NCBI GenBank assembly: GCA_964593375.1
Contig: CAZQIF010000001.1
Location: 6,405-70,404, forward strand
Direction of reading: 5' to 3'
DNA from: an uncultured Candidatus Saccharibacteria bacterium
Lineage (GTDB): Bacteria > Patescibacteriota > Minisyncoccia > Phycocordibacterales > UBA918
DNA length: 64,000 nucleotides
Positions 8,347 through 41,204 of the stretch are shown here, piece by piece (the stretch's first letter is position 1; each line of letters begins with the position of its first letter). The notes beneath the pieces were generated by a model that made no database searches, was not told the DNA's origin, and worked only from the letters and a program-made list of their open reading frames with translations. Made by a program: the position numbers and the translations under genes.

Positions 8347-9251
8347 ATACGATTACATCACCACAGAATAATGACACGCTCAAAAAAGAAGTACTTGAGC
8401 GAATTGTACGTGAGGAAATTACGCCGGTTTCTAAGACACTCTTTGCGCTTAAAAATATTCTATTCTGGACACTGTGGATATTAACGATGCTTCTTGGAGC
8501 ACTCGCCGTTGCGGTGCTCATTTTTACCGAACTCAATATTGGGTGGGAGTTCTATGAGATGACACACAAGAACGCACTTACGTTTTTTGCACATTCACTG
8601 CCGTATCTTTGGATACTCCTTTTGGGGGCGGTGGTAATTCTTGGCATCTACAACCTTCGACATACAAAAACAGGATATCGCTACTCACTAGTTGTCGTAG
8701 TGCTTGTGGGTGTCTGTGGAAGTGTTCTCGGAGGAGTAGTCCTTCATAGCTACGGAATGGGTAAAGTACTCGATGAGGGATTTGGAAAATTTATGCCCAT
8801 GTATGTACCGGTGCGAAGTGAACGAGAAGGTTTTTGGAGACAGCCTGAACGAGGACTATACACCGGCACGATAACAGCGCTCGACAATGAGCAGATGGTT
8901 ATGACACTTGTTTCAACTGATGGGATTACCCATGTCCTTAGTACAGCATATGTACCTCAAACTCAGCTTTCAGAAATTGAAGTAAACACTCGCGTACGAA
9001 TCATGGCAACATCGAGTGATGAAGATGAGAGCATCTTTGTGTGCCGAATTCATGAATGGGAGGATGACGAGGCGCTGACATTTGGTGATATGCATGAACG
9101 TAGACAGATGTTTCGAGATGTATTTGAGAACATTGAAGAGCGAATTGAAGGAGAAGTACCAGAGGTCACTCCTTGTACACCACTTAAACAGGGCGGGGGT
9201 ATGAAAATGAACCGCCCACCTATGCCTGTACTTCCACCTGAAATAAATTAA
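8343..9251 (+). CDS. putative anti-sigma factor / membrane protein, co-translated with the ECF sigma
   Basis: Start overlaps the sigma-factor stop (ATGA, 4-bp overlap). Several TM helices after a cytoplasmic N-terminus. The assignment rests on position in the operon. Confidence 0.55.
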   Translation: MNTITSPQNNDTLKKEVLERIVREEITPVSKTLFALKNILFWTLWILTMLLGALAVAVLIFTELNIGWEFYEMTHKNALTFFAHSLPYLWILLLGAVVILGIYNLRHTKTGYRYSLVVVVLVGVCGSVLGGVVLHSYGMGKVLDEGFGKFMPMYVPVRSEREGFWRQPERGLYTGTITALDNEQMVMTLVSTDGITHVLSTAYVPQTQLSEIEVNTRVRIMATSSDEDESIFVCRIHEWEDDEALTFGDMHERRQMFRDVFENIEERIEGEVPEVTPCTPLKQGGGMKMNRPPMPVLPPEIN

Positions 9252-9312
9252 ATGTTCATGCGTAGTAATAGATGCAGGAGAATGAGCTCCTGCATTCATT
9301 CTTTAAATTACT

Positions 9313-9825
9313 ATGACAACATTTACACAAGATCAAAAACTCGCATTACTCGTAGTTCCCGTGCTCCTTTTTGGGATTCTTGGTAGTAGTTACGCACTTG
9401 CATATGAAACAGACCTTACCGATGAGCAAAAGGAAGCAGTAATTGAAGCTCATGAACTTCGTCAGGCTGGAGATTTCGAGAGTGCACGAAGTATTTTAGA
9501 GAAAGCGGGAGTCAAAGATAGAGTTCTCGGTAATGGCATGGGTAGAAACGGAGTCATGCACGAAAAGCGGGAAGCAATTCGAGAAGCTGTTGAAGCAAAT
9601 GACTATGATGCATATGTAGAGGCAACTAAGGATACGCTCTTTGCAGAAACGGTTACAAAAGATATGTTCAGTACAATAGTTAAAGCACACGAGCTTCGTG
9701 AAGATGGAAAGTTTGCAGAAGCAGAAGCATTACTCGATAAAGCAGGTATTGAACGCCCAGGTCACATGATGGGTGGACGAACTGGTGGCGGTATGGGGAT
9801 GCATCGTGGCATGGGACAAAATTAG
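9313..9825 (+). CDS. hypothetical secreted/anchored protein with an internal duplication (EAHELRQAGDFESARSILEKAGV / KAHELREDGKFAEAEALLDKAGI) and a Gly/Met-rich C-terminus
   Basis: ORF with an N-terminal hydrophobic segment. The repeat is seen directly in the translation. Third gene of the sigma operon, followed by a terminator. Confidence 0.6.
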   Translation: MTTFTQDQKLALLVVPVLLFGILGSSYALAYETDLTDEQKEAVIEAHELRQAGDFESARSILEKAGVKDRVLGNGMGRNGVMHEKREAIREAVEANDYDAYVEATKDTLFAETVTKDMFSTIVKAHELREDGKFAEAEALLDKAGIERPGHMMGGRTGGGMGMHRGMGQN

Positions 9826-9855
9826 TCTTTCAAGACCAGATTGATACAGAATTCA

Positions 9856-9884
9856 AACCGGCGCGCCAAAGTGCGCCGGTTTTG
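9856..9884 (+). terminator. intrinsic terminator (CCGGCGC-gccaaagt-GCGCCGG followed by TTTTG)
   Basis: Seen in the sequence. Confidence 0.65.
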
Positions 9885-9901
9885 TGTAGTATGATATACA
9901 A

Positions 9902-10831
9902 ATGTTCACACAAATTTTCATATTTGCTGTTTCCTTGTTTATCGTGATTCAAAGCTCTGTACTTGCGACAAGATATGCAGCACGCATAGCTAATGGTTTT
10001 AATCTTTCGAAATACACCGTCGGATTTATTGTTATTGCAATTATTTCCATTCTACCTGAGACCTTTATTTCAGTGAATTCTGCACTTGAGGGTGTCCCAT
10101 CATTCGGGTTCGGTATGCTTCTTGGTTCAAACGTTGCGGATCTTACCATCGTATTTGCACTTATAGCATTTTTTGCACATAGACCGCTTAAAGTAGAAGG
10201 TCAAATTCTCAAAAGTCATGTTCTCTATCCCTTCATTCTGTTACTTCCAATCGTACTCGGACTGAATGGTGAACTGAACCGTCCTGAGGGTGCAGGACTC
10301 ATTCTTACGGGAATTATTTTTTACTATATGACGCTCAAGCGCGGTAACAAGGTATCGCATACACAAACGCATTCAAAAGGTCAAACAAAATCTATCCTCC
10401 TACTCCTCTTGAGTATGGCACTTCTCCTATTAGGGGCGCATTTTACGGTCACCTCTGCATCTTCACTTGCGATACTCATGGGAATTAGTCCTGTATTAAT
10501 TGGGATGCTCATTGTCGGGCTCGGTACGACGATGCCGGAGTTTTTCTTTTCACTTCGTGCTGTTCGTGCTCATGACGACTCGCTTGCGATTGGCGATATT
10601 CTTGGCACCGTTCTCGCTGACGCAACGATTGTGGTGGGTATCCTCACACTCATTCAACCGTTTACATTTCCAACAGAAATCATTTATGTTGCAGGTGTCT
10701 TCATGGTTGCTGCTGCATTTATTCTCTTTAGCTTTATGCGCTCAGGTAAAAACATATCAGGGAAGGAAGCATTTGCACTCCTTGTGCTTTGGATAGCATT
10801 TATCGCTGTAGAATGCATTGTTAATCTGTAA
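9902..10831 (+). CDS. cation:calcium antiporter family membrane protein (CaCA / YrbG-like Na+/Ca2+ exchanger)
   Basis: Two repeated alpha-repeat regions (..GFIVIAIISILPETFISVNSALEG.. and ..IVGLGTTMPEFFFSLRAVRAHDDSLAIGDILGTVLAD..) in a roughly 10-TM protein. Confidence 0.8.
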   Translation: MFTQIFIFAVSLFIVIQSSVLATRYAARIANGFNLSKYTVGFIVIAIISILPETFISVNSALEGVPSFGFGMLLGSNVADLTIVFALIAFFAHRPLKVEGQILKSHVLYPFILLLPIVLGLNGELNRPEGAGLILTGIIFYYMTLKRGNKVSHTQTHSKGQTKSILLLLLSMALLLLGAHFTVTSASSLAILMGISPVLIGMLIVGLGTTMPEFFFSLRAVRAHDDSLAIGDILGTVLADATIVVGILTLIQPFTFPTEIIYVAGVFMVAAAFILFSFMRSGKNISGKEAFALLVLWIAFIAVECIVNL

Positions 10832-10878
10832 TAAAGAAGTTCACAGAGTCATACATGTAGAAGAACAATGAATATTCT

Positions 10879-11343
10879 TTGGTGTATGATTATAAAATGT
10901 TTACTCTTGAATTTGTAGGATTGTTTTTGTTTATTGCAGGTTTTGTGATTGGTTTAGGTGCCGTTACAGTTATTGACCTCCACGGTTTTCTCGGTCGCCA
11001 CTCATCATATTGGACTCTCGCGACGACACGTACTCACAAAATCACTAAACCGCTCATTTGGATTGGTCTATTACTCTGTATTGTGGGAGGACTGATATTT
11101 TACCAGCACGAGCCTATAGAAAAAGTACTTCTTTTTCATGTGGCAACACTTCCTGTCATGATTCTAAATGGATTATTTCTTTCGTTCCGCATCAGCCCAC
11201 TTCTTCTGCAGAGAGAAAAGGAAGGAAAGGCTGATGTTATTCTTCATCAATCACTACAGGTTCAAATAACTGTTAGTTTTATTTTTTCATTTATCTGCTG
11301 GTGGGGGAATCTTCTCGCACTTGTGTTTTTCCTCACAAACTAG
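10879..11343 (+). CDS. hypothetical membrane protein (4 TM)
   Basis: Hydrophobic ORF with no recognisable family. Confidence 0.55.
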   Translation: MVYDYKMFTLEFVGLFLFIAGFVIGLGAVTVIDLHGFLGRHSSYWTLATTRTHKITKPLIWIGLLLCIVGGLIFYQHEPIEKVLLFHVATLPVMILNGLFLSFRISPLLLQREKEGKADVILHQSLQVQITVSFIFSFICWWGNLLALVFFLTN

Positions 11344-11357
11344 TATACCGATCACTT

Positions 11358-11600
11358 ATGTCGCATCCTTTTTCCAAAATGTTTGAGAAGGCACTCGCGA
11401 AGAGTTACGGTGATGAAAACTTTGTGCTTGCCGAGGCAGAAAAGCTTATGCAGAAAGGGTATAACGCTCATGAGATTTATACTGTGCTTGTAAAGCTGGA
11501 GAAATCACTTATCCAAGATGCTGATGTTGCAATACTCTCTGAAGCTGTTGAAGAATTTAGCCAGTATGTTGACCACCCAGATGAAGAAGTATTGATATAA
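11358..11600 (+). CDS. hypothetical small protein (80 aa)
   Basis: The ORF track begins at 11301 and overlaps the upstream gene. The first ATG that avoids the overlap is at 11358 (MSHPFSKMFEK...). Confidence 0.45.
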   Translation: MSHPFSKMFEKALAKSYGDENFVLAEAEKLMQKGYNAHEIYTVLVKLEKSLIQDADVAILSEAVEEFSQYVDHPDEEVLI

Positions 11601-11628
11601 TACTGAATCTGTGATATAATCTCAAACA

Positions 11629-12213
11629 ATGAATAACTTCAAAAAAGACGGCTTCCGAAAGGGAGGTGCAGGTTTTGGTGGTAAACCAAAATTCGGAGGT
11701 GGTAAGTTTGGCGGACCAGGACGTGGACATGATAGAGGACACGGTCGCGATGACCGAGGTGGAGAAAAAACTGAAATGTTTTCTGCAACTTGCTCAGCAT
11801 GTCATAAGGCATGTGAGGTTCCATTTCGTCCATCAGGCGACAAGCCAGTGTACTGTCGCGAGTGTTTTATAGAAAAGGGACCAAATGATAACCGTGTTGG
11901 AAAAAGCTTTGAGAAGCGCAGTGACTTTAGTCGAGAAGCTCGCCCACAGCGAGATTCACGACCTTCATATCGCGACGAAGCACCTGCGCATAAATCTTCT
12001 GGAAACGAAGAGCTTAAAAAGCAAATTGCAATACTTGAGACAAAACTAAATCGTGTCATTGAACTCTTGACGGTAGAAACGGTAAAGAAAGTTGAGGTTA
12101 TAACACTTCCAGATACTAGTGAAACTCCCAAGAAAGCAAAAAAAACTAAAATTGAAAAAGTAAAAGTTAAAAAAATAACTAAAAAGAAGGGAACAAAGAA
12201 AGTTAAAGAATAA
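11629..12213 (+). CDS. FmdB-type zinc-ribbon protein with a Gly/Arg-rich N-terminus and a Lys-rich C-terminal tail (putative nucleic-acid binding)
   Basis: CSACHKACEVPFRPSGDKPVYCRECF matches the CxxC-x17-CxxC FmdB-like ribbon. It is flanked by GGxGGKxKFGGG repeats and a KKxKKxK tail. A terminator follows. Confidence 0.7.
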   Translation: MNNFKKDGFRKGGAGFGGKPKFGGGKFGGPGRGHDRGHGRDDRGGEKTEMFSATCSACHKACEVPFRPSGDKPVYCRECFIEKGPNDNRVGKSFEKRSDFSREARPQRDSRPSYRDEAPAHKSSGNEELKKQIAILETKLNRVIELLTVETVKKVEVITLPDTSETPKKAKKTKIEKVKVKKITKKKGTKKVKE

Positions 12214-22482: not shown

Positions 22483-22932
22483 GTGTACACCAATGTTAAG
22501 ATTTTATCGATGGATATGTACAAAAAAGATTTTGATAAGTGGAACAGTGAAAAGAAACTAATAAACGAAAACCATAGAAAGGTTTTTGGTTACCCTCGTG
22601 AAGTATGGTGGTGTTCACTTGGTGTCAATGTAGGGTCTGAAATAGACGGAAAGAACGAAAATTTTGAACGCCCTGTTATTATCCTTCGTGTATACAACAA
22701 GGAAACCATGCTTGTACTGCCAACTACCGGTAAAGTTCAGGATAACAAATTCCATTTACCAATTGAGATTGAGACATACAACCCAGAGACTAAAAATACA
22801 TACAACAAGACCGTGTATGTAAAATTGACACAAGCTCGTGTGATAAGTAACAAACGATTGCTACGTAAAGTTGATGTGATTAACGAAAATGAGTTTGAGA
22901 AGATACGGGATGCGTTCAAATCATTCACCTAA
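22483..22932 (+). CDS. type II toxin-antitoxin system PemK/MazF-family toxin-like protein (solitary; no adjacent antitoxin ORF)
   Basis: The core ..GYPREVWWCSLGVNVGSEIDGKNENFERPVIILRV...MLVLPTTGK...VKLTQARVISNKRL follows the MazF/PemK fold pattern. The ORF-track start is GTG 22483 and the first ATG is 22510. Confidence 0.7.
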   Translation: MYTNVKILSMDMYKKDFDKWNSEKKLINENHRKVFGYPREVWWCSLGVNVGSEIDGKNENFERPVIILRVYNKETMLVLPTTGKVQDNKFHLPIEIETYNPETKNTYNKTVYVKLTQARVISNKRLLRKVDVINENEFEKIRDAFKSFT

Positions 22933-23128: not shown

Positions 23129-24565
23129 ATGAAAAAAGAGATACCCCTAGGTCAAAGTAGGGAAGTGGTAGAAGAGATGGCAGAAAAAATTGAGCAGACG
23201 CTCAACGCGTTTGATGTACCCATCAAAGTAGTAAAAGCAATTGAAGGGCTACACAGCTATCACTTTCACCTCAAAACATTAAAGCCGGTACGAATGAAAG
23301 CGATTGAATCATTCGAACAAGATCTTCGGTATGCACTCGGTTCAAGCAAAGTTGAGATACAGGCACCAATACCTGATGAGGTGCTCATCGGTATCAGTGT
23401 GCCTAAAAGTGATTCAATTCCAATGCTACTGTGGAGTGATGCTGTAGAAGCAGAAGAATTTGCTGATTCCGGCTACCTCGTTGTTCCGCTCGGGCAGGAT
23501 GAATTTGGCGAAGAAGTTAATCTCAAGATTCCACGACTTCCACACGTACTCATTGGTGGTGCAACTGGTTCTGGTAAGACTGTTCTTCTCTATTCCATCA
23601 TCAATTCGCTTATGTTGAAGCATAGTCCTGATGAAGTCCGTTTTATTTTTGCTGATCCAAAACGGTGGAGTCTCGTTCAATACAATGGTATACCACACCT
23701 CCTTACGCCGGTTATTACTGACGCAAAGCGTGTGATTCTCGCACTCAAACATTGTATTAAAGAAATGGAACGAAGACTTGATATTTTTCTGGAAAACAGA
23801 ATTCTAAATATTTCTTCGTACCATACAAGTATCTACCAACCCGCTATTGAGAAATTTAAAAAGAGAGGTTCACGAGAAGATGAACGCGATGATCTCCCAG
23901 AACCGCTCCCGTACATTGTTATAGTGCTTGATGAGCTTTCTGATTTGATGGCGGCATACCCAAAAGAACTTGAAGCGTGCATTGTACGATTAGCACAAAA
24001 AAGCCGTACTGTTGGGATACATCTCATACTGAGTACACAACGTCCATCAGTGAATGTCGTAACCGGTCTCATGAAGGCAAATATTCCAACACGTATTGCG
24101 TTTCAAGTAACTTCCTCAATTGACTCACGTACTATTCTTGATCAATCAGGGGCGGAAAAATTGCTTGGCAATGGTGACATGCTCTACATAAACGCAGAAA
24201 TGTTACAACCAGCACGAATACAGGGATACTATATTTCTGATGAGGAAATGTTGAAAAACATAGAATTAATTAGAATGAAATACGACATGCCAGAACTTGA
24301 TTCTATACAATTCAGTAATAATAACTCTACAAATGGAGCATTTTTCAGTAATGATGAAGAAGATGAAGATGATGACCTGTACGAAGATGTAAAAGCGGTT
24401 GTAGTTGAAACAGGGAAGGCATCAACTTCATTTTTGCAACGAAAATTTGGTATCGGATATTCTCGCTCAGCAAAACTCATCGATTTACTCGAGGAGCGTG
24501 GTGTGATCGGCCCCAGCAATGGTTCAGAGCCACGAAAGGTACTTATTCCAAAGGAGGAAGACTAA
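23129..24565 (+). CDS. FtsK/SpoIIIE-family DNA translocase, soluble form (no N-terminal membrane domain) with a C-terminal gamma winged-helix domain
   Basis: Walker A GGATGSGKTV, Walker B IVIVLDELSDL, gamma domain SFLQRKFGIGYSRSAKLIDLLEERGVIG. No TM segments are apparent in the first 130 aa. Confidence 0.85.
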   Translation: MKKEIPLGQSREVVEEMAEKIEQTLNAFDVPIKVVKAIEGLHSYHFHLKTLKPVRMKAIESFEQDLRYALGSSKVEIQAPIPDEVLIGISVPKSDSIPMLLWSDAVEAEEFADSGYLVVPLGQDEFGEEVNLKIPRLPHVLIGGATGSGKTVLLYSIINSLMLKHSPDEVRFIFADPKRWSLVQYNGIPHLLTPVITDAKRVILALKHCIKEMERRLDIFLENRILNISSYHTSIYQPAIEKFKKRGSREDERDDLPEPLPYIVIVLDELSDLMAAYPKELEACIVRLAQKSRTVGIHLILSTQRPSVNVVTGLMKANIPTRIAFQVTSSIDSRTILDQSGAEKLLGNGDMLYINAEMLQPARIQGYYISDEEMLKNIELIRMKYDMPELDSIQFSNNNSTNGAFFSNDEEDEDDDLYEDVKAVVVETGKASTSFLQRKFGIGYSRSAKLIDLLEERGVIGPSNGSEPRKVLIPKEED

Positions 24566-24576
24566 CATCACGTACC

Positions 24577-24948
24577 ATGCAACCACTCGATGAAATACAT
24601 AATCCCGAACTACTTGAAATAATTGAAATTATTTCAATGGTGTACGAAAAATTTGAAATGCCAATCGAAGTTGAGGGAGTTTCTGAAGAAGATTTGCTAT
24701 ATGTCGTTCACTGTCTCGAATTAAATCATGCAAAAATCGATAAGGTAGATAAGTTACCTTCAACAATAGAATACACACTCAATAGAAAACCTGTCACCAT
24801 CAATCGACTATCCGAAGAACCAGACGACTACCGCTTTGAGATTCGTGTTCCTATGAAGTATGAAGAACCTGAAACGGCAATGGTTAAGGAAGAAAAGGAC
24901 AGTATCTTTATAATTTTCAATCCACTTGAATCGCCTGGTTTTGCTTAG
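24577..24948 (+). CDS. hypothetical protein (123 aa, acidic)
   Basis: ORF directly after the FtsK-like gene with no recognisable family. Confidence 0.55.
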   Translation: MQPLDEIHNPELLEIIEIISMVYEKFEMPIEVEGVSEEDLLYVVHCLELNHAKIDKVDKLPSTIEYTLNRKPVTINRLSEEPDDYRFEIRVPMKYEEPETAMVKEEKDSIFIIFNPLESPGFA

Positions 24949-25104: not shown

Positions 25105-27891
25105 ATGAGAATAAACTTTTCTGAAGTACAACGTAATGTCTCCGAGATTGCTAATCGCCAACAGTATACAATCAATGTGCTATATGAACTGATGGCTGCT
25201 TATGGTCGCTCTGCTTCATCAATCACGAAGCTTAGAAACGGAGTCAATAATCTCGCCGCTGACAAAAATACTACTGTTCTCCAACGCGGTGTAGTTTATT
25301 TTAAAGTCATTCAAAATACCGGCAGTTTGCCAGCTCAAGTCGAAAAACTAGAACAAGACCCTTTAACACAGCGCTACAACCCACGCTTTTTAATTGCGAC
25401 TGACTTAAAAAACTTTGCAGCAAAAGACACGAAGAAAGGAAACACACTTGAAATTGACTGGACTAACATAGACAGAAATGTTGATTTTTTTTATGGCTGG
25501 ACCGGAGACGAGGTTACTAGCGAAAAGACCGAAGCCGTTGCTGACCGCAGAGCTGCAGATAAAATGAAGGAGCTATACCAAGAAGTCGAGAAGGTCAATG
25601 CAAGCAAGTTCAAAAAAACCGGAAAGGATTTTCGTCACAATCTCAATGTATTTTTCACACGCCTGCTTTTCTGCTTCTTTGCTGAAGATACCGGGGTTTT
25701 TGCAAAAGAAGAGAGAGGAGTTTTTACAAGTGCAATACGTGATTATACGCAGATAGACGGTTCGGACTTAGATCAATTCCTCGGGACACTTTTCGAGTCA
25801 CTTGATGAAGAAGATAAAAGTATCTTCACTAGTCCATTTTCTAAGTTCCCATATGTAAATGGAAGATTGTTCGATAAGACTTATGGAATAGAAATTCCAA
25901 AATTTAATGCGCAGTCACGGCATCTTATTCTTGAATGCGGTGCACTTAGTTGGGCCCAAATCAATCCAGACATATTTGGTTCGATGTTCCAGAGTATTGT
26001 TGATGAGGAACATCGCGCTACTCACGGGATGCACTACACAAGCGTGCCAAATATTATGAAGACTATAGAGCCCCTATTCCTAGATGAACTCCGTGATGAA
26101 TTTGATAAATATTATGATGACCCAAAAAAGTTACAAAAACTGCATGAAAGGATATCAAAGATAAAAATATTTGATCCAGCTTGTGGCTCAGGAAATTTTT
26201 TAATCATTGCTTATAAGGAACTCAGAAAACTAGAACATGCCATTATTGAGCGTCTGTTTGAAGATGAATACATTGCCAATCAGCTTAAGAATAAGCTGCA
26301 ATCAAGTATTGACCTGAATAATTTCTACGGAATTGAGATAGATGATTTTGCGTGTGAGGTTGCTGTACTTTCGCTTTACTTGACTAAACATCAAATGAAC
26401 TTGGAGTTTGAAAAGCAGTTTGGTAGGGAAATCAAACTCATCCCACTTGTAGATAAGGCCAATGTTATTCACGGGAATGCAACCAGACTCGATTGGCAAG
26501 AAGTTTGCCCAAACGTCCCAACAAAGAAAAGTATGATTACTGAGCTGCAAGGACAGCTAATTGTGACTGAAGAAAATACCAATCACCTTCTGATGGAGAA
26601 TGAATGGGATGAAATATATCTCATTAGTAATCCTCCGTACTTGGGTCAACCTAATCAAGAAGATTCGCATAAAGCGGACATGGATTTTGTATTTGGGGGG
26701 TTACAGGGTAAGTTTAAGAAACTTGACTATGTCGGGTGTTGGTTTTTTAAGGGTACAGAATACATATCCAATACAAAAGCAAAATTAGCATTCATATCAA
26801 CTAACTCCATTTTTCAAGGTGTTCAAGTTGAGCAACTTTGGCCAAAATTATTCAGTCATAATATCGAGATTCAGTTTGCTTTTTCTCCTTTCAGGTGGAC
26901 TAACAACGCAAGAGATAATGCGGGTGTGTATGTGACTGTGGTCTCCTTAAGAGTGAGAGGAAAGTCAGATAAGTATTTGTTTATTGATGGAATCAAGTTG
27001 AAAGCGCGGAACATTAACGCATACTTGATTGATGCAGATAACATAATCGTAGGCAAGACAAAGCATTCGATTTCAAGCCTACATCCAGTGCTAGGGGGGT
27101 GCCAGCCACGTGAGGGTGGGCATCTCATGCTGTCCGATAAAGAGAAGCATGAGTTGTTAAAAAGATCTCCAGAAGCAAATAGATTCATCAAACCGATGAT
27201 TGGCACAAATGAACTAATTAAGGGAACTCGGAAGTGGTGCATTTGGATAGAAGATTCAGAACTAGATGAAGCTTTCAAGATTAAGGAAATCAAGGAAAGA
27301 GTAAACTCTGTCCGAGCGCATAGAATCTCTGGAAATTCAGTTGAGCGAACATTTGCTAACGTTCCTCATAGGTTTGTTACAATCAAACGCCCAATGGCGC
27401 ATCAAATTGTAATTCCTAACTTAACACCCATTGATAAACCTTATCTTCCATTAGGATACTTAAATAGAGAGTACATTGTAAATAAGCAAGCATATTGCAT
27501 ATTTGACTCTGGTTTGGAATATTTTGCACTTTTAATATCAAAAACTCACATGAAATGGCTCGAAGTAGTTTGCGGTAGATTGGGCAACGCAATAAGCTAT
27601 TCTGCACATATTGGATATAATACTTTCCCGGTAAAGAATATGGATGAAAGTGAAGTTAATAAGCTAAGAGCTTCGGCCAGGGAAATATTATTTACACGAC
27701 AAAATCATTCAGAAATGAGTTTGGGAGAGCTGTACTCTACAACCACCATGCCAGATGATTTGCGTGAGGCGCATCATCAAAATGACTTACTGGTAGACAA
27801 GTTATATCGACAAAAACCGTATGCTAATGATGAAGAACGACTGACTGACTTGTTTAAATTGTATGAAGAAATGATAACTAAAGAGAAATAA
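25105..27891 (+). CDS. MmeI-family Type IIL-like restriction-modification protein (N-terminal nuclease-like domain, gamma-class N6-adenine DNA methyltransferase, C-terminal target-recognition domain)
   Basis: There are long collinear matches to MmeI: RLLFCFFAEDT, FPYVNGRLF, IFGSMFQSIVD, HYTSVPNIMKTIEPLFLDEL, FDPACGSGNFLIIAYKELRKLE (motif I), FYGIEIDDF, HQMN, NPPY (motif IV), FISTNSIFQGVQVEQLWP, FAFSPFRWTNNA, AYLID, RKWCIWI, YNTFP. The upstream segment PRFLIATDLKNF parallels MmeI PRYVLVCDFQRF. Confidence 0.9.
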   Translation: MRINFSEVQRNVSEIANRQQYTINVLYELMAAYGRSASSITKLRNGVNNLAADKNTTVLQRGVVYFKVIQNTGSLPAQVEKLEQDPLTQRYNPRFLIATDLKNFAAKDTKKGNTLEIDWTNIDRNVDFFYGWTGDEVTSEKTEAVADRRAADKMKELYQEVEKVNASKFKKTGKDFRHNLNVFFTRLLFCFFAEDTGVFAKEERGVFTSAIRDYTQIDGSDLDQFLGTLFESLDEEDKSIFTSPFSKFPYVNGRLFDKTYGIEIPKFNAQSRHLILECGALSWAQINPDIFGSMFQSIVDEEHRATHGMHYTSVPNIMKTIEPLFLDELRDEFDKYYDDPKKLQKLHERISKIKIFDPACGSGNFLIIAYKELRKLEHAIIERLFEDEYIANQLKNKLQSSIDLNNFYGIEIDDFACEVAVLSLYLTKHQMNLEFEKQFGREIKLIPLVDKANVIHGNATRLDWQEVCPNVPTKKSMITELQGQLIVTEENTNHLLMENEWDEIYLISNPPYLGQPNQEDSHKADMDFVFGGLQGKFKKLDYVGCWFFKGTEYISNTKAKLAFISTNSIFQGVQVEQLWPKLFSHNIEIQFAFSPFRWTNNARDNAGVYVTVVSLRVRGKSDKYLFIDGIKLKARNINAYLIDADNIIVGKTKHSISSLHPVLGGCQPREGGHLMLSDKEKHELLKRSPEANRFIKPMIGTNELIKGTRKWCIWIEDSELDEAFKIKEIKERVNSVRAHRISGNSVERTFANVPHRFVTIKRPMAHQIVIPNLTPIDKPYLPLGYLNREYIVNKQAYCIFDSGLEYFALLISKTHMKWLEVVCGRLGNAISYSAHIGYNTFPVKNMDESEVNKLRASAREILFTRQNHSEMSLGELYSTTTMPDDLREAHHQNDLLVDKLYRQKPYANDEERLTDLFKLYEEMITKEK

Positions 27892-27892
27892 T

Positions 27893-29851
27893 ATGAACAA
27901 GGAAACAATAAACATAATAGAAAATGAGTATGAGCAGACGGGTGCAAGTAAGCGTCAGAATGAATTTGGCATGCGTGAGATGCAAGTGCGAGCCTATGAA
28001 AAACGTAATAGTAATCATTTACTGATTAAAGCTCCACCTGCATCTGGTAAATCTCGGGCACTAATGTTTATTGCCTTGGACAAACTACACAATCAAGGTA
28101 AGAAGAAAGTAATTGTGGCGGTACCCGAAACTTCAATTGGTGCTTCATTTTCTAGTATCAAACTTACAGAAAACGGTTTCTATGCTGACTGGGTTGTAGA
28201 ACCGATGAATAATCTATGTGCAGGTACTTGTGATGATAAAAGTAAAGTTAAGGCTTTTGTTAGATTCATGAATGGTGAAGATCGAATACTTGTTTGTACT
28301 CACGCAACACTTCGCTTTGCTTTTGAGGAGATACCATCCAAAGATTTCAATGACTGCGTATTGGCAATTGATGAATTCCACCATGTCTCAACGAGTGATT
28401 CGAGTCGGCTAGGAGAATTGGTCAGAAATGTGATGCGTGATTCTAATGTTCAAATGATTGCAATGACCGGGTCATACTTTCGAGGTGATGCTGTGCCCAT
28501 ACTTCGTGCAGAGGATGAAATGAATTTTGATAAAGTCACTTACACTTACTACGAACAACTTAACGGGTATGAGTACTTGAAAACCCTGGGCATAGGTTAT
28601 CACTTCTATACCGGAAACTACCTCGATAAAGGCGCGCTCGATAGTGTGCTAGATACAACAAAGAAGACCATCATTCATATTCCAAATGTGAATTCAAAAG
28701 AGTCAACACAGATTGGTAAGGATGAAGAGGTGCAACATATCTACGGTATCATTGGTGAATGGATCGAACAGGATTCCGATACTGGTATAGAAATTTTAGA
28801 AACAGAAGATGGTAGAAAATTGAAGATCGCAAATCTTGTGGAGGATGAACCAATTCATAGAAGCAAGTTAGACAAATATCTAGCTGACGTGGCTCGAGAT
28901 AGTATCGATGGCGTAGACATTATCATCGCACTTGGTAAGGCAAAAGAAGGATTTGATTGGCCATTTTGTGAACAAGCACTCACCATCGGGTATCGAGCAA
29001 GTCTAACTGAAATCGTACAAATAATAGGTCGTTGCACGAGAGATAGCTACAACAAAAACCACGCACAGTTCACAAATTTAATCGTTCAACCAAATGGAAC
29101 ACAGGATGATGTACAGGTATCGGTCAATAACATGCTCAAGGCGATTACCGCTTCTTTACTCATGGAGCAGGTCCTCGCCCCTAACTTTACTTTCAAACCA
29201 AGGACATCCCCACGAGATAAAACTTCTGCAGGGGAGGTGTTTGTCAAAGGACTCAGACAACCAACGAATGAGAAGGTGAAAAGAATACTGGAAACCGAGT
29301 TGGAAGATTTAACTGCTGCTGTTCTGCAAGACACACAATATCAAAGGTCCGTAGCAGCAGACCATTCTCCTGAGTATCGCAAGCACTTGCAATCAAAAAT
29401 AATTCGAGAAAAACTGCCTGGTCTCACTGACGAGGAAGTGGAGACAACAAGACAGTATCTCGCTAGCAACCTGGCGTTTAAAACCGGAAAGATAACTGCA
29501 GATGGAGATAAGAAATTTATTACCATGGCAAATAGTTTCGTTAATCTTGATGATTTGACCATTGACTTGATTGATTCTGTGAACCCATTCCAGCATGCGT
29601 TTGAGGTTATTTCTAAAAAAGTAGGTGCTGATGTATTCAGGGTCATTCAGGATACGATTGCTGGTTCACGTATAGATATGTCAGACGAGGATGCACTTGT
29701 GCTCGTTCCTCAAATAGAGTCGTTTGTCGTCACTCACAATGGTCAACACCCAAAACTGAATTCAAACGACAAGAATGAGAAGTTACTAGCACAGGCAAAA
29801 GCGTATCTCACTGCTAGATATTCTCAAATCATGAGGGATAAGCAAAAATAA
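27893..29851 (+). CDS. SF2 helicase-family ATPase (DExH box), 652 aa
   Basis: Motif I APPASGKS, Ia VAVPETS, II DEFHH, III MTGS, VI QIIGRCTRD. The start codon lies 1 bp after the stop of the methyltransferase gene. Confidence 0.85.
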   Translation: MNKETINIIENEYEQTGASKRQNEFGMREMQVRAYEKRNSNHLLIKAPPASGKSRALMFIALDKLHNQGKKKVIVAVPETSIGASFSSIKLTENGFYADWVVEPMNNLCAGTCDDKSKVKAFVRFMNGEDRILVCTHATLRFAFEEIPSKDFNDCVLAIDEFHHVSTSDSSRLGELVRNVMRDSNVQMIAMTGSYFRGDAVPILRAEDEMNFDKVTYTYYEQLNGYEYLKTLGIGYHFYTGNYLDKGALDSVLDTTKKTIIHIPNVNSKESTQIGKDEEVQHIYGIIGEWIEQDSDTGIEILETEDGRKLKIANLVEDEPIHRSKLDKYLADVARDSIDGVDIIIALGKAKEGFDWPFCEQALTIGYRASLTEIVQIIGRCTRDSYNKNHAQFTNLIVQPNGTQDDVQVSVNNMLKAITASLLMEQVLAPNFTFKPRTSPRDKTSAGEVFVKGLRQPTNEKVKRILETELEDLTAAVLQDTQYQRSVAADHSPEYRKHLQSKIIREKLPGLTDEEVETTRQYLASNLAFKTGKITADGDKKFITMANSFVNLDDLTIDLIDSVNPFQHAFEVISKKVGADVFRVIQDTIAGSRIDMSDEDALVLVPQIESFVVTHNGQHPKLNSNDKNEKLLAQAKAYLTARYSQIMRDKQK

Positions 29852-29854
29852 TTC

Positions 29855-31021
29855 ATGTCTGACAAAGATTTTACAAAAGAATTACGCGAACTTTTTGAAT
29901 CAGAAGCCGGCGCCTTATTTATCCCGAAGGAGACACCCAGGAAACTTACTGTAGATGATAGATTAGCTGAGTCCTTCCAACAGATAATAAATTTTGTACA
30001 AGAAAATGATTGTAAACCAGAAATTGATTCACTAGACTTCAATGAGGCACTGCTATCAAAACGACTTGAATTGATAAAACATACACCAGAAAAAGTTCAA
30101 GCCTTAGAACAATATGATTCTTTAGGGTTGTTGGTACAGCCTGAAACACCAAAGAGTATTGAAGAGTTATTTGAAAAAGATGAGTTTGGACTTTTTAAAG
30201 GTGATGAGAACAAAATCTTCAACATTGAACACATCAAACAAAGGAAGGTTGTAAATCCAGTGGGAGAAAGAGCCACAAGGATTAAATCGGAAGACTTTGC
30301 TGAATTTGAAATAATCTTTAAAGATGCTCAGGAAAAGCTAAAGAGTGGAGATAATAAGCTCTTCGCATTTAAATCCGTCGAACAACTTCACGTAGGACAT
30401 CTTTATATTAACAGTGGACAAATGGTCTATGTTGCAAGTGAGGGTCAGATAGATGAAAAGGCTGGCTATAAGCAGCAGAGACTACGAGTGATTATTGAGA
30501 ATGGCACTGAATCGAACATGTATAGACGCTCCCTCGCTCAACGATTATATGAAGGTGGATATTGTGTAGTTGGTAACGAAGAATTATCTAGTGGTCTTCC
30601 TGATGAATCGGAAAAGATTAAAGGGTACATTTATGTCGTACGTTCTTTGAGTGAAAATTCAAAAATAAATACAATTGCAAATCTCTACAAAATTGGTTTT
30701 TCCAGAACACCGGTTTCTCAAAGAATTGCTAATGCAAAAATCGATCCTACCTACCTGATGTCTGAAGTGGATCTGGTTGAGAGTTACAGATTAACAGGAG
30801 ATTACAACCCACAAAAAGTAGAGGATATGATTCATAGGGTATTTTCAGATGTTGCCCTCGATATGAAGATAATTGATAACCAAGGTCGAGAGTATAAACC
30901 AAAGGAGTGGTATTCAGTACCAATTCATATTATTCGCGAAGTAGTTGATCTTATAGATTCTGGTGAGATTGTGAATTATGTTTATGATTCAAACCAGCAA
31001 AAGATGGAACTGGTAAAATAA
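29855..31021 (+). CDS. T5orf172 (MUG113/GIY-YIG-like) domain-containing protein, 388 aa
   Basis: C-terminal GYIYVVRSLSENSKINTIANLYKIGFSRTPVSQRIANAKIDP...EDMIHRVF...EWYSVPIHII fits the T5orf172 pattern (G.IYV....KIG.T.....R......EWF). The N-terminal 250 aa are unassigned. The start lies 3 bp after the helicase stop. Confidence 0.75.
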   Translation: MSDKDFTKELRELFESEAGALFIPKETPRKLTVDDRLAESFQQIINFVQENDCKPEIDSLDFNEALLSKRLELIKHTPEKVQALEQYDSLGLLVQPETPKSIEELFEKDEFGLFKGDENKIFNIEHIKQRKVVNPVGERATRIKSEDFAEFEIIFKDAQEKLKSGDNKLFAFKSVEQLHVGHLYINSGQMVYVASEGQIDEKAGYKQQRLRVIIENGTESNMYRRSLAQRLYEGGYCVVGNEELSSGLPDESEKIKGYIYVVRSLSENSKINTIANLYKIGFSRTPVSQRIANAKIDPTYLMSEVDLVESYRLTGDYNPQKVEDMIHRVFSDVALDMKIIDNQGREYKPKEWYSVPIHIIREVVDLIDSGEIVNYVYDSNQQKMELVK

Positions 31022-31190: not shown

Positions 31191-32507
31191 TCATTTAACT
31201 TTTTTTAGTTTGTGAAAATCTACGAGTGTCTTTCCGAGTCTGTCAATGACACCTACAACAAGAGCGTTTCCCATGAAGAAAGCTCTCCGCGCGTCGCCAT
31301 GTCCTTGTGTGTGATTGTCAGGGAACATGCACAGTCTTTCTAGTTCAAGTGGTGTGAGGCGTCGAAGACCTTTCTTAGTCTGAACCACATGTTTAAACCG
31401 TGATGGACTCTTTCCACCTTCTCCAGTAATTATAGTCCGAGAGGGTTTATCAAGTGGGTCAGGGAAGACCATACCTCCTTCTGTGTATATGAACTCAAAA
31501 CCATTTGCCGCCTTTCTTGGTTCATTCTTCGCTCCTTTTAAATACTCCCAACGTTTTAAATCATTCTCTGAAATATAGAAATCATCAGGAACATCCGTTT
31601 CATCTAACAAAATATCGCCGATTGTGATTGAGGACCCTTCATATTTTGGTTGTACCTTTACAGTGTGAATTTTGTAATCAAAAGCAATACCTGCGTTTTT
31701 AAATGGTGAATGATTAGGTTTGTAGGTTTCAAAATCATTAGAGATGATTACTGGGTCTGTGTGAAGATGTCTTGTTTGAACCTCAGAAGCAAATTCAACA
31801 GGAAAAGCTTTTGCAGTTAATCCTTTATCATGTAACCATGACTCGATAGAATTGTGAGCGACAAATTTCTCATGTATTGGAGAACCTTTCTTATATCCAA
31901 GTATAAAAATGCGCCTTCTTCTTTGTGGTAATCCATACTCAGCAGCGTTAATAACTCTCCACTCCACTACATACCCAAGTTCATTTAGAGTTGAAAGGAT
32001 AATTGCGAAATCACGACCGCGCTGTGAGGCTGGGGACTTAAGGAGACGGTCAACATTTTCCAACATAAGGTAGTTGGGTGATTTATCTCCCTTTTTTTTA
32101 AGAATATTATATATAGACCACCAAAGAACACCCTTCTTTCCTTCGAGTCCTTTAGCGGCAGAAAGATTTCTCGCAACAGAATAGTCCTGGCAAGGGAATC
32201 CACCAACAAGTAAATCGTGATCAGGAACCATATCAATGACCCGAGCGATATCCTTATTGGTATATTCATCAAAGTCACCAAAATTTCTCACATAAGTTTC
32301 ATGTGCATGCTGCTTCTTTGTTGAAGGTTCCCACTGATTGAACCAAATGGTTTCGTAGTGCTTGTGATGAGGCTTTCTGTTTCCCTTGTACCCCTCGAGC
32401 CCAAGTCGGAATCCCCCGACACCCGCAAATAATTCAACAACTTTCAAACTATCTGTTTTAGATTTTCTATTGATCTTTTTTTGATTTGTGGTGTTATTTT
32501 GTGTCAT
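31191..32507 (-). CDS. DNA (cytosine-5)-methyltransferase
   Basis: Motif I ELFAGVGGFRLGLEG, motif IV GGFPCQDYS, ENV (LMLENV), QRR (YGLPQRRRRIF). Confidence 0.9.
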   Translation of the reverse strand: MTQNNTTNQKKINRKSKTDSLKVVELFAGVGGFRLGLEGYKGNRKPHHKHYETIWFNQWEPSTKKQHAHETYVRNFGDFDEYTNKDIARVIDMVPDHDLLVGGFPCQDYSVARNLSAAKGLEGKKGVLWWSIYNILKKKGDKSPNYLMLENVDRLLKSPASQRGRDFAIILSTLNELGYVVEWRVINAAEYGLPQRRRRIFILGYKKGSPIHEKFVAHNSIESWLHDKGLTAKAFPVEFASEVQTRHLHTDPVIISNDFETYKPNHSPFKNAGIAFDYKIHTVKVQPKYEGSSITIGDILLDETDVPDDFYISENDLKRWEYLKGAKNEPRKAANGFEFIYTEGGMVFPDPLDKPSRTIITGEGGKSPSRFKHVVQTKKGLRRLTPLELERLCMFPDNHTQGHGDARRAFFMGNALVVGVIDRLGKTLVDFHKLKKVK

Positions 32508-32569
32508 TTAGTGCTAGCATTCTAACATGTGAGTTAAAAGTGATCAATCACTTACACCAACACACCACA

Positions 32570-33376
32570 ATGAACGCAAAAGATCAAGATAATGGTAATT
32601 TAAGTCTTGAATTAACGAGCAAACTTGCTGTAAATCTTGATGAACTCAAAACCAACGTCAGTGGTGTAAGAAGAATTGAAAGAGCAAAAGAGGCAATATC
32701 GTGGTCTTCTGGTTTAGCTTTAGAAAATCAACATTTTCATGAGATTTGGAAAGATAATAATGGTTTTTATTCTGTAAAAATGGCAAAGCCGGGTAAGGAG
32801 TTTTTTGAAACTGCAATCAGATATAAGGACGGTCACCGTGACAACAATCCAAATGATATGAGGCCGACGCTTTTTGTCGGTGCTGTACAGCAATCAAATT
32901 ATGCTACCTTCCAGGAAGTGTTTCATGAGCTCCAAATAACTTGGCGAAAAAGTGAATTTGCTGCTGAATTACTTGCTTGTCTTTTGTTTAGGTCTGCATT
33001 TATGGTTGATCATACAAAAAATAAATTTGGGGAAGAGGGCTACTGGAGATATGTCCCAAATCAAGATGTCGTTTCAATTCTCGAGTCAGAACTCAATTCA
33101 ATGCATGGCATCTCCTGTCTAGCTTTTTTGCATTATCTTGATGCTATAGGTTTAAATGAGGATGTGAAATATCTGACACTGGGTTACCCAATTCAACAAG
33201 GATACGGTAGACGTAACAACCTTCTTACTTATGTAAATATTCTCTCTATGTTTCTTGAGAGGGAGACTTTTGGAGCAGTGGCTGGTGCGTTTTCAAGACC
33301 CCCAGCTGGAGTTGCACCGATATCTCAAAGTAAAGCGATACAATTTTTCCCGTGGCTTTCAAGTGTTCCTCGCTAG
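32570..33376 (+). CDS. hypothetical protein, divergent from the C5-methyltransferase gene; candidate cognate Type II restriction endonuclease (positional inference only)
   Basis: The ORF track starts at TTG 32486 and overlaps the methyltransferase start. The first ATG (32570) gives a 63-bp divergent spacer. No recognisable motifs. The C-terminal 40 aa are low complexity. Confidence 0.4.
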   Translation: MNAKDQDNGNLSLELTSKLAVNLDELKTNVSGVRRIERAKEAISWSSGLALENQHFHEIWKDNNGFYSVKMAKPGKEFFETAIRYKDGHRDNNPNDMRPTLFVGAVQQSNYATFQEVFHELQITWRKSEFAAELLACLLFRSAFMVDHTKNKFGEEGYWRYVPNQDVVSILESELNSMHGISCLAFLHYLDAIGLNEDVKYLTLGYPIQQGYGRRNNLLTYVNILSMFLERETFGAVAGAFSRPPAGVAPISQSKAIQFFPWLSSVPR

Positions 33377-33435: not shown

Positions 33436-34632
33436 ATGAATCAAATAATATGTCCACATTGTAAAAAGACTTTCACAATCGATGATGAGGGTTTCGCTAA
33501 TATCTTAGTGCAGGTACGTAACCAAGAGTTTGAGAAAGAGTTACATGAGCGTCTTGAGTTACTAGAGAAAGATAAAGAAAGTGCGATCAAATTATCAGAA
33601 GCAAGTTTAAAGAACCAACTACAAAGTGATTTAGCAATCAAAGATGCTGAGTTGGCGGAGTTGAAATCAAAAGTAAGTAACATTGAACTTGAGAAAAAAC
33701 TTGCCGTAACTGAAGCAGTGACTGCAATTGAAAAGGAGCGCGATGCTCTTTCATCTAAACTTCAAAACAAGGAGCATGAAAGTAAAATTCTTGAAGCCTC
33801 ACTGAAAGATAAATATGAAAGTGAACTGAAATTCAAGGATGAGACGATTGATCGCCTCAAAGATATGAAGTTGAAACTCAGCACAAAGATGGTTGGCGAG
33901 ACACTGGAACAACACTGTGAAACTGAATTTAATAAATTACGCGCCACAGGTTTCAAAAATGCTTATTTTGAAAAAGATAATGATTCAAAAACTGGTAGCA
34001 AAGGTGACTATATTTATCGCGAAGACGATGATTCAGGCAATGAGATTATCTCAATAATGTTTGAAATGAAAAATGAAAGTGATGAGACTACTACCAAGAA
34101 AAAGAATGAGGACTTTTTACGCGAACTTGATAAAGACCGTATTGAAAAGAAATGCGAGTTCGCTGTTCTTGTTTCGCTTTTAGAGTTAGACAGCGAACTA
34201 TACAACACCGGAATTGTCGATGTATTTCACAAGTATCCAAAAATGTATGTCGTTCGTCCACAATTTTTCATTCCAATCATAACCTTGTTACGCAACGCTG
34301 CCTTGAGTTCTCTTGAATACAAAGCAGAGCTTGCAGTAGTTCGAGCACAAAATATTGATATCACGAACTTCGAAGAAAATATGGAGGAGTTTAAAAGTGC
34401 ATTTGGTAAGAATTATGAACTATGGGGTCGAAAGTTTGGCGAAGCAATTGAAGGCATCGATAAGACAATTACTCAGCTAGAGAAAACAAAAGCTGCACTT
34501 CTTTCTTCAGAGAATAATCTTCGACTAGCAAATGGTAAAGCCCAAGACCTTACCATTAAAAAATTGACCCGAGGTAATCCTACAATGAAAGTAAAGTTTG
34601 AGGAGCTTTCAGATACTAAAAAGCCACTGTAA
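33436..34632 (+). CDS. DUF2130-like protein (N-terminal CxxC zinc ribbon, long coiled coil, conserved C-terminal domain)
   Basis: [13 protein letters not shown]..., then about 150 aa of coiled coil, then the C-terminal region ..[27 protein letters not shown].. typical of the family. The family name is recalled from memory. Confidence 0.65.
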
Positions 34633-41052: not shown

Positions 41053-41074
41053 ATATCCCGCGAGGGATATTTCC
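41053..41074 (+). terminator. hairpin ATATCCC-gcga-GGGATAT after the DUF3800 gene, preceded by an A-run
   Basis: Seen in the sequence. Confidence 0.45.
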
Positions 41075-41204
41075 AACCACTCGGTCTAGACTGGTTGTCC
41101 CAGCCACGCCACCATCCGGTGACAGTTCGACACGAAAGTTTTTGTATATACACTATATCACTTGACAGACTGAAAATCAATTGTTTTCCACAGACGATTC
41201 AAGT

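Follow-up and report, generated by a model that had tools for sequence, protein, structure and literature searches.

A YeeA/DnmA-branch protein with a degenerate MmeI-type nuclease domain and conserved helicase and GIY-YIG-like partners in Candidatus Saccharibacteria

Introduction

Homologues of the restriction enzyme MmeI were divided by Morgan et al. 2009 (PMC2731913; NAR 37:5208) into two sets, one of which has a PD-ExK motif, aligned with MmeI D70, E80 and K82 as the criterion for inclusion. Members of the second set, of which YeeA of Bacillus subtilis is an example, are without PD-ExK; their first ~100 residues are unlike MmeI, 'substituting a domain' in the authors' wording, and their genes 'invariably' adjoin one for a YeeB-like DEAD helicase and one for a YeeC-like protein with a GIY-YIG motif. 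Expressed and purified YeeA and MslORFHP had no endonuclease activity, and the authors speculated that the N-terminal domain contacts the helicase and nuclease subunits for scission in a Type I-like manner (PMC2731913). Here we describe a gene that appears to belong to this second set, located at positions 25105-27891 of a stretch of 64,000 nucleotides from an uncultured Candidatus Saccharibacteria bacterium (contig CAZQIF010000001.1, positions 6,405 to 70,404). We refer to the whole stretch as the window and give all coordinates in its numbering.

The published phenotypes of such systems disagree, with no defence observed in B. subtilis and defence observed in a Vibrio, where yeeAB protects Vibrio crassostreae from some phages (Piel et al., bioRxiv 10.1101/2021.05.05.442762). 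YeeA of B. subtilis, also called DnmA, produces N6-methyladenine at GACGAG on one strand (PMC7261158). The literature on the group also includes Nye et al. 2020 (B. subtilis DnmA) and Fernandez et al. 2023, and our literature search found no paper that reconstitutes or biochemically characterises a three-protein YeeABC-type system. Since the phenotypes disagree, well-conserved operons like the one in the window could be useful for reconstitution.

An earlier note on the window had proposed that the nuclease-like N-terminal domain of the protein may lack the catalytic acid and that cleavage would then be delegated to partner proteins. The proposal is correct as to the loss, but it rediscovers Morgan et al. 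2009, who had also put forward delegated cleavage as a speculation, and by itself it opens no new question. What the present analysis adds is a corrected residue mapping, the finding that the domain is a constrained degenerate homologue of the MmeI nuclease domain, and the description of a sub-branch that is intact, well conserved and mostly composed of Saccharibacteria and other members of the Candidate Phyla Radiation (CPR).

Results

An MmeI-family protein of the YeeA/DnmA branch

The product of the open reading frame (ORF) at 25105-27891 matches five Pfam domains of the MmeI family: MmeI_N (residues 10-163, 4e-14), MmeI_hel (6e-21), MmeI_Mtase (4e-98), MmeI_TRD (3.5e-62) and MmeI_C (3.2e-17). 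They correspond, in this order, to a nuclease-like N-terminal domain (N-domain), a helical spacer, a methyltransferase, a target-recognition domain and a C-terminal bundle. The PADLOC model REase_MTase_IIG (PDLC03598, Type IIG) matches the protein over its full length (5.8e-265). Among solved structures, MmeI itself (PDB 5HR4) is the only match (phmmer, E 4.9e-143), and the pairwise alignment covers residues 87-924, beginning at query residue 87, opposite MmeI residue 102. FDPACGSGNFL (the S-adenosylmethionine motif) and NPPY (the catalytic motif) are both present in the methyltransferase domain and align with MmeI. Within this family we place the gene in the YeeA/DnmA branch, and we take everything downstream of the N-domain (helical spacer, methyltransferase, recognition domain and C-terminal bundle) to be intact as judged by its sequence. 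The features of the gene are the following.

25105..27891, + strand: YeeA/DnmA-type MmeI-family protein of 928 residues, with an ATG start and five Pfam MmeI domains
25105..25599, + strand: N-terminal domain, residues 1-165, homologous to the MmeI PD-ExK domain, with the catalytic residues gone (hhalign, AlphaFold2)
25273..25311, + strand: strand 2 - turn - strand 3, residues 57-69 (TVLQRGVVYFKVI), site of MmeI D70...E80-M-K82 (alignment register, AlphaFold2 strands)
25459..25599, + strand: best-conserved segment, residues 119-165, DIDRxVDFFYGWTGDExTxEKTEAxADRRAADKM..LYxEIE (homologue identity)
26104..26982, + strand: predicted N6-adenine methyltransferase domain (gamma-class), residues 334-626 (Pfam MmeI_Mtase, 4e-98)
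27034..27639, + strand: target-recognition domain, residues 644-845, the most variable part (Pfam MmeI_TRD, 3.5e-62)

The N-domain and the nuclease domain of MmeI are homologous

Three sets of sequences were compared: 119 close homologues of the window protein, which are 54-70% identical; 120 canonical MmeI-type N-termini, collected with the MmeI N-terminus as query; and 150 representatives of clusters in the wider family, which was sampled by searching 1.84 billion proteins with a profile (465 matches at E <= 1e-3). Profile-profile comparison with hhalign aligned the close homologues with the canonical MmeI-type N-termini over 166 columns at a probability of 93.8%. For the wider family the probability rose to 99.2% (E 6.6e-20), over 163 columns that span residues 1-164. 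We also obtained AlphaFold2 models of residues 1-180 of the window protein, with a predicted local distance difference test (pLDDT) score of 79.6 that reaches about 85-92 over residues 11-130, and of a canonical N-terminus, P0147 (pLDDT 81.5). Helices and strands occur in identical order in the two models, and in a joint alignment all five strands coincide column by column, strands 2 and 3 included. Taken together, profiles and models indicate that the N-domain is a diverged copy of the MmeI nuclease domain that has kept the fold, not an unrelated replacement.

Every catalytic position has been replaced

The register across the catalytic region was agreed by both hhalign profile alignments, by joint MAFFT alignments and by the coincidence of the modelled beta-strands, of which strands 2 and 3 fall at residues 57-60 and 64-68 in the window protein. 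It assigns the residues of MmeI as follows.

MmeI D70: window T57, the first residue of strand 2
MmeI G75: window G62
MmeI E80: window K67
MmeI M81: window V68
MmeI K82: window I69
MmeI E25 (accessory acid): window R18
MmeI E51 (accessory acid): window L43
MmeI D115: window D100, retained

In the canonical MmeI-type N-termini, D70, E80 and K82 are each invariant (121/121), and the window protein has T57, K67 and I69 in their place; residues 58-69, VLQRGVVYFKVI, are devoid of Asp and Glu. Among the 119 close homologues, position 67 is Lys in 113 and Arg in 6; position 69 is occupied by V, I, T, L, A or F, being hydrophobic in 112 and Lys in none. Position 57 varies (T in 41, E in 37, D in 26, S in 9 and A in 5). 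In most of the wider family, K or R occupies position 67 and a hydrophobic residue position 69, and position 57 is E or D in ~72% of the 150 representatives. Some members, a minority, have E at position 67, and the nine of these that we inspected are all without Lys two residues further on; of those representatives that were checked for E or K at the triad positions, none has a D...ExK arrangement. Absence of the triad is thus fixed in the lineage, and is neither a chance mutation nor a sequencing error. Because every catalytic position has been replaced, the polypeptide is predicted to be unable to cut DNA via a canonical PD-ExK site.

The earlier note had anchored its mapping on the segment PRFLIATDLKNF (residues 93-104), which does align with MmeI PRYVLVCDFQRF (residues 108-119) in the phmmer alignment to 5HR4, and it had correctly located both VVYFK, at residues 63-67 of the translation, and D53. 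From there it equated D53, Y65 and K67 with D70, E80 and K82, and so placed an aromatic Tyr/Phe at the position of the catalytic Glu. This register lies two positions off: it requires two additional gaps and is at odds with the two profile alignments, the MAFFT alignments and the strand positions, and we rejected it in favour of T57/K67/I69. In the agreed register the catalytic Glu corresponds to a conserved Lys/Arg, and Y65, which is Tyr in 116 and His in 3 of the close homologues, stands opposite MmeI L78. D53 falls in the loop before strand 2, opposite MmeI G67, and not at the start of that strand; it is replaced by Asn in 15% of close homologues, and we do not regard it as a catalytic Asp. 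An acidic residue within about two residues of Y65 and opposite E80 was looked for and not found. What survives of the claim is its substance, a nuclease-like N-domain without the catalytic acid; its residue-by-residue mapping does not.

Stronger conservation of the N-domain than of the methyltransferase domain

Mean identities to the window protein were calculated by region among 118 full-length homologues.

N-domain (residues 1-165): 72%
Residues 119-165: 83%, with an identity of at least 95% in 64% of columns
Methyltransferase domain: 59%
C-terminal bundle: 60%
Target-recognition domain: 36%, against an overall identity of 54-70% for the homologues

Spacer and linker segments (residues 178-333) apart, no other part of the protein is as constrained as the N-domain. 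Such a pattern points to strong purifying selection on a degenerate homologue, and not to a swapped-in or decaying sequence. A dead domain that is more constrained than the catalytic methyltransferase domain must have another function. Residues 119-165 are a candidate docking surface for partner proteins. Within this best-conserved segment, residues 137-146 are modelled with a pLDDT below 50, and this part may become ordered only when a partner binds. The hypervariable recognition domain, for its part, is as expected of a restriction-type system that diversifies its specificity.

Helicase and GIY-YIG-like genes follow the methyltransferase gene

Two further genes continue the operon on the same strand.

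27893..29851, + strand: YeeB-type superfamily 2 (SF2; DEAD/ResIII) helicase of 652 residues (Pfam DEAD 9e-08, ResIII 3.9e-07)
29855..31021, + strand: YeeC-type protein of 388 residues, predicted nuclease subunit (Pfam MUG113 2.8e-11, T5orf172 1.9e-10)
30623-30955, + strand: C-terminal T5orf172/MUG113 domain of the YeeC-type protein (GIY-YIG superfamily), ~residues 257-367 (Pfam)

Only 1 nt separates the methyltransferase stop from the helicase start, and 3 nt lie between the helicase gene and the YeeC-type gene. In a comparison of 21 sequences, helicase motifs I, II, III and VI (PPASGKS, DEFHH, TGS and QIIGRxTR) show at least 95% conservation, and the YeeC-type motifs GxIY, KIG, R/RI, H..F and EWY do so in 25 sequences.

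Synteny was assessed in 30 related loci from species-representative genomes, mostly metagenome-assembled genomes (MAGs) of Candidatus Saccharibacteria and other CPR. Downstream DNA is available for 28 loci, and in 27 of them the helicase gene stands directly behind the methyltransferase gene. The 25 loci of sufficient extent all carry both partner genes, the helicase gene first and the GIY-YIG-type gene after it. Of the three proteins, the helicase is conserved best, its identity (57-88%) exceeding that of the methyltransferase in every locus. The helicase and GIY-YIG-like genes are tightly coupled, syntenic partners of the methyltransferase gene. The trio extends beyond these genomes: plasmids of Bacillus sp. 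BD59S and Ligilactobacillus salivarius carry genes annotated 'DNA methyltransferase - DEAD/DEAH box helicase - GIY-YIG nuclease family protein', the Bacillus plasmid orthologue of the YeeC-type protein being the one annotated 'GIY-YIG nuclease family protein'. The Bacillus sp. BD59S methyltransferase is 41% identical to the window protein over residues 3-927 and belongs to the same type of operon. A megablast search of the window operon against plasmids gave no match. The picture of a methyltransferase/specificity module without a cleavage site of its own, accompanied by a helicase and a GIY-YIG-like partner, which the earlier note had drawn, is supported by the loss of the triad, by this synteny and by published work (PMC2731913).

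Some loci have departed from the common arrangement. The sole exception among the 28 is a decayed locus in a Candidatus Saccharibacteria MAG (L020, JAGQNK010000054.1), in which an intact YeeA-type gene (131-2914) is followed by a KilA-N gene (2918-3790) and a 23-codon remnant of the helicase start (~3781-3852), and there is no GIY-YIG gene. On the L. salivarius plasmid NZ_CP101531.1 (L032), the YeeA-type gene is in pieces (8971-11670), of which the N-terminal one bears the annotation 'type IIL restriction-modification enzyme MmeI', and the genes for the helicase and the GIY-YIG protein are still present; the same split is found in many L. salivarius megaplasmids.

Genes around the operon

The following elements lie on either side of the three genes.

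22483-22932, + strand: PemK/MazF-type toxin gene, upstream of the operon
23129-24565, + strand: FtsK/SpoIIIE gene with alpha, motor and gamma domains, after the toxin gene
24577-24948, + strand: ORF of 123 residues without a family match, just upstream of the operon
31191-32507, - strand: C5-cytosine DNA methyltransferase gene (Pfam 7.5e-60)
32486-33376, + strand: divergent ORF of 296 residues without a Pfam match, overlapping the start of the C5-cytosine methyltransferase gene
33436-34632, + strand: DUF2130 protein (Pfam 2.4e-87), downstream of the preceding pair
41072-41140, - strand: Rfam DUF3800-IX RNA motif (50.3 bits, above the gathering score of 36.8), the only Rfam match in the window

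The C5-cytosine methyltransferase gene and the 296-residue ORF are probably a separate Type II 5-methylcytosine (m5C) restriction-modification pair adjoining the operon. The presence of such a pair beside a YeeABC-type operon suggests a small defence island.

Discussion

Given the loss of the triad, the constraint on the N-domain and the steady company of two partner genes, we consider it likely that the window encodes a YeeA/DnmA-branch protein with a dead nuclease domain that acts within a three-subunit restriction system resembling Type I and Type ISP enzymes. How might such a system operate? We envision that the methyltransferase, helicase and GIY-YIG genes are co-transcribed and that, by analogy with MmeI and DnmA, the methyltransferase-recognition subunit would find an asymmetric site and methylate one adenine on one strand, protecting host DNA. 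The same subunit would detect unmethylated sites. The dead nuclease domain, and residues 119-165 especially, might then serve as a docking or switch adaptor for the SF2 helicase, which would translocate or remodel DNA at unmodified sites driven by ATP, and the GIY-YIG subunit would make the cut. We infer that the subunits form a physical complex, that translocation is driven by ATP and that the GIY-YIG subunit cleaves the DNA. It is conceivable, furthermore, that the dead PD-ExK domain is an exapted pseudo-nuclease, namely an allosteric docking and licensing module that couples the recognition of unmethylated sites to helicase loading and GIY-YIG firing, a possibility that we take seriously while stopping just short of favouring it. 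A corollary of this last idea would be a structurally distinct, three-subunit, single-strand-methylating class of restriction system, of which only the mechanistic detail would be new beyond the outline of Morgan et al. 2009.

Several observations weigh against the proposed three-subunit system. In B. subtilis, dnmA-yeeB-yeeC neither affects transformation nor changes the killing of cells by phages or their plaquing (PMC7261158, PMC9973331), and the authors regard the cluster as a relic with an orphan methyltransferase (PMC9973331, PMC7261158). The link from the window protein to B. subtilis YeeA (NP_388558) itself runs via the 41%-identical Bacillus plasmid homologue and the definition of the family, and a genome scan with motifs specific to the sub-branch did not return B. 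subtilis. On the structural side, the nuclease domain of MmeI is disordered in 5HR4, which leaves no experimental template, and a Foldseek search of the N-domain model against the PDB gave nothing at E <= 1e-3. Because of that lack of a significant Foldseek match, the case for fold conservation rests on profile homology and secondary-structure order, not on three-dimensional superposition. The best Foldseek matches, to aminoacyl-tRNA synthetase anticodon-binding domains and CoaB (E 7.5e-3, template modelling score ~0.25), we took as noise.

Three other explanations have to be weighed. The locus might be the relic of a decayed restriction system, its methyltransferase being an orphan epigenetic regulator and its N-domain a leftover without a role, as was concluded for the B. 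subtilis cluster; and decayed relatives do exist, in the form of the Saccharibacteria locus without helicase and nuclease genes and of the L. salivarius plasmids with a fragmented methyltransferase gene. For the window we nevertheless consider this unlikely. All three of its ORFs are whole and tightly coupled, conservation is higher in the N-domain than in the methyltransferase domain, the helicase has kept its motifs and a high identity across loci, and the recognition domain is hypervariable, as it would be under diversifying selection for specificity. Moreover, yeeAB does shield a Vibrio from phages (bioRxiv 10.1101/2021.05.05.442762), and the adjoining MazF toxin gene and separate m5C methyltransferase gene give the operon what looks like a defence-island setting.

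Alternatively, the N-domain may have changed in a different manner from the one that we propose. Some PD-(D/E)xK enzymes have migrated catalytic residues, and the domain might still be a nuclease with a non-canonical site that uses relocated residues such as E28, D100, D108 or K67. It does contain near-invariant acids (E28, D100, D108, D123 and D127), of which D100 corresponds to D115, invariant in canonical enzymes, and the equivalent of D70 is acidic in most of the wider family. Yet that same position is Thr in the window protein and drifts between T, E, D, S and A in its close homologues, the metal-binding Glu has become basic in all 119 of them, the catalytic Lys has given way to a hydrophobic residue in nearly all and persists in none, and purified YeeA and MslORFHP were without endonuclease activity (PMC2731913), so that we regard a surviving nuclease as highly improbable. 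It is scarcely credible, finally, that over the first ~100 residues an unrelated domain has taken the place of the nuclease domain, an idea that would accord with the wording of Morgan et al. 2009 on these residues (PMC2731913), with the pairwise phmmer alignment to MmeI, which starts only at residue 87, and with the absence of a nuclease match by Foldseek against the PDB. It is opposed by the Pfam MmeI_N match, by a profile-profile alignment that extends over residues 1-164 and by the secondary-structure order common to both AlphaFold2 models. A constrained but dead nuclease domain in an intact three-subunit system is the explanation that we prefer.

Comparison with known systems

MmeI and the other Type IIL enzymes share with the window protein the five-domain architecture, similarity over the full length and homologous N-domains. 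They differ in possessing D70, E80 and K82, and they are encoded by solitary genes without steady flanking partners, whereas the window gene has two conserved ones. MmeI-type enzymes cleave in a Mg2+-dependent manner 20/18 nt from the recognition site, an activity that the relative YeeA did not show (PMC2731913).

BREX PglX and DISARM DrmMI resemble the window protein in being MmeI-related methyltransferase-recognition proteins without a nuclease of their own in multi-gene defence systems. Membership of BREX was rejected on NCBIfam BREX models, which scored 14-41 bits against cut-offs of 400-900 (BREX-1 PglX, 40.9 against 500), and that of DISARM on the PADLOC score for DrmMI (2.1e-25, against 5.8e-265 for the Type IIG model); neither BrxA/B/C/L, PglZ nor DrmA/B/C/D was present among the neighbouring genes in the window. 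MADS was rejected on scores and on absent partner genes.

Type ISP enzymes (LlaGI, LlaBIII) and Type I enzymes, like the window trio, combine a gamma-class adenine methyltransferase-recognition module with an SF2 helicase and a nuclease module, and a translocating, ATP-dependent restriction system of this kind is the likely functional analogy. Membership of either type fails on architecture, as the helicase and nuclease of the window are separate ORFs. In Type ISP, all modules reside in one polypeptide with an Mrr/PD-(D/E)xK nuclease, whereas in the window the modules are spread over three polypeptides, the nuclease is of the GIY-YIG type and the methyltransferase subunit bears a vestigial PD-ExK domain; in Type I, unlike in the window trio, nuclease and motor are joined on HsdR and HsdS is a separate subunit.

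It is the YeeA-YeeB-YeeC group that the locus matches. Both have an MmeI-like protein without PD-ExK, in which the N-terminal ~100 residues are divergent and the remainder is highly similar. Genes for a DEAD helicase and for a GIY-YIG/T5orf172 protein come directly after it, ordered and oriented alike in both, and neither the locus nor the group includes a companion methyltransferase in the operon. Compared with the group at large, the sub-branch of the window comes mostly from Candidatus Saccharibacteria and other CPR MAGs and has an unusually conserved N-domain, and compared with the wider YeeA family, in which most members have Glu or Asp at position 57, the window protein has Thr. As far as its sequence tells, the window locus is a well-preserved and otherwise ordinary representative of the YeeA/DnmA-YeeB-YeeC group, with an arrangement of genes that has been known since 2009.

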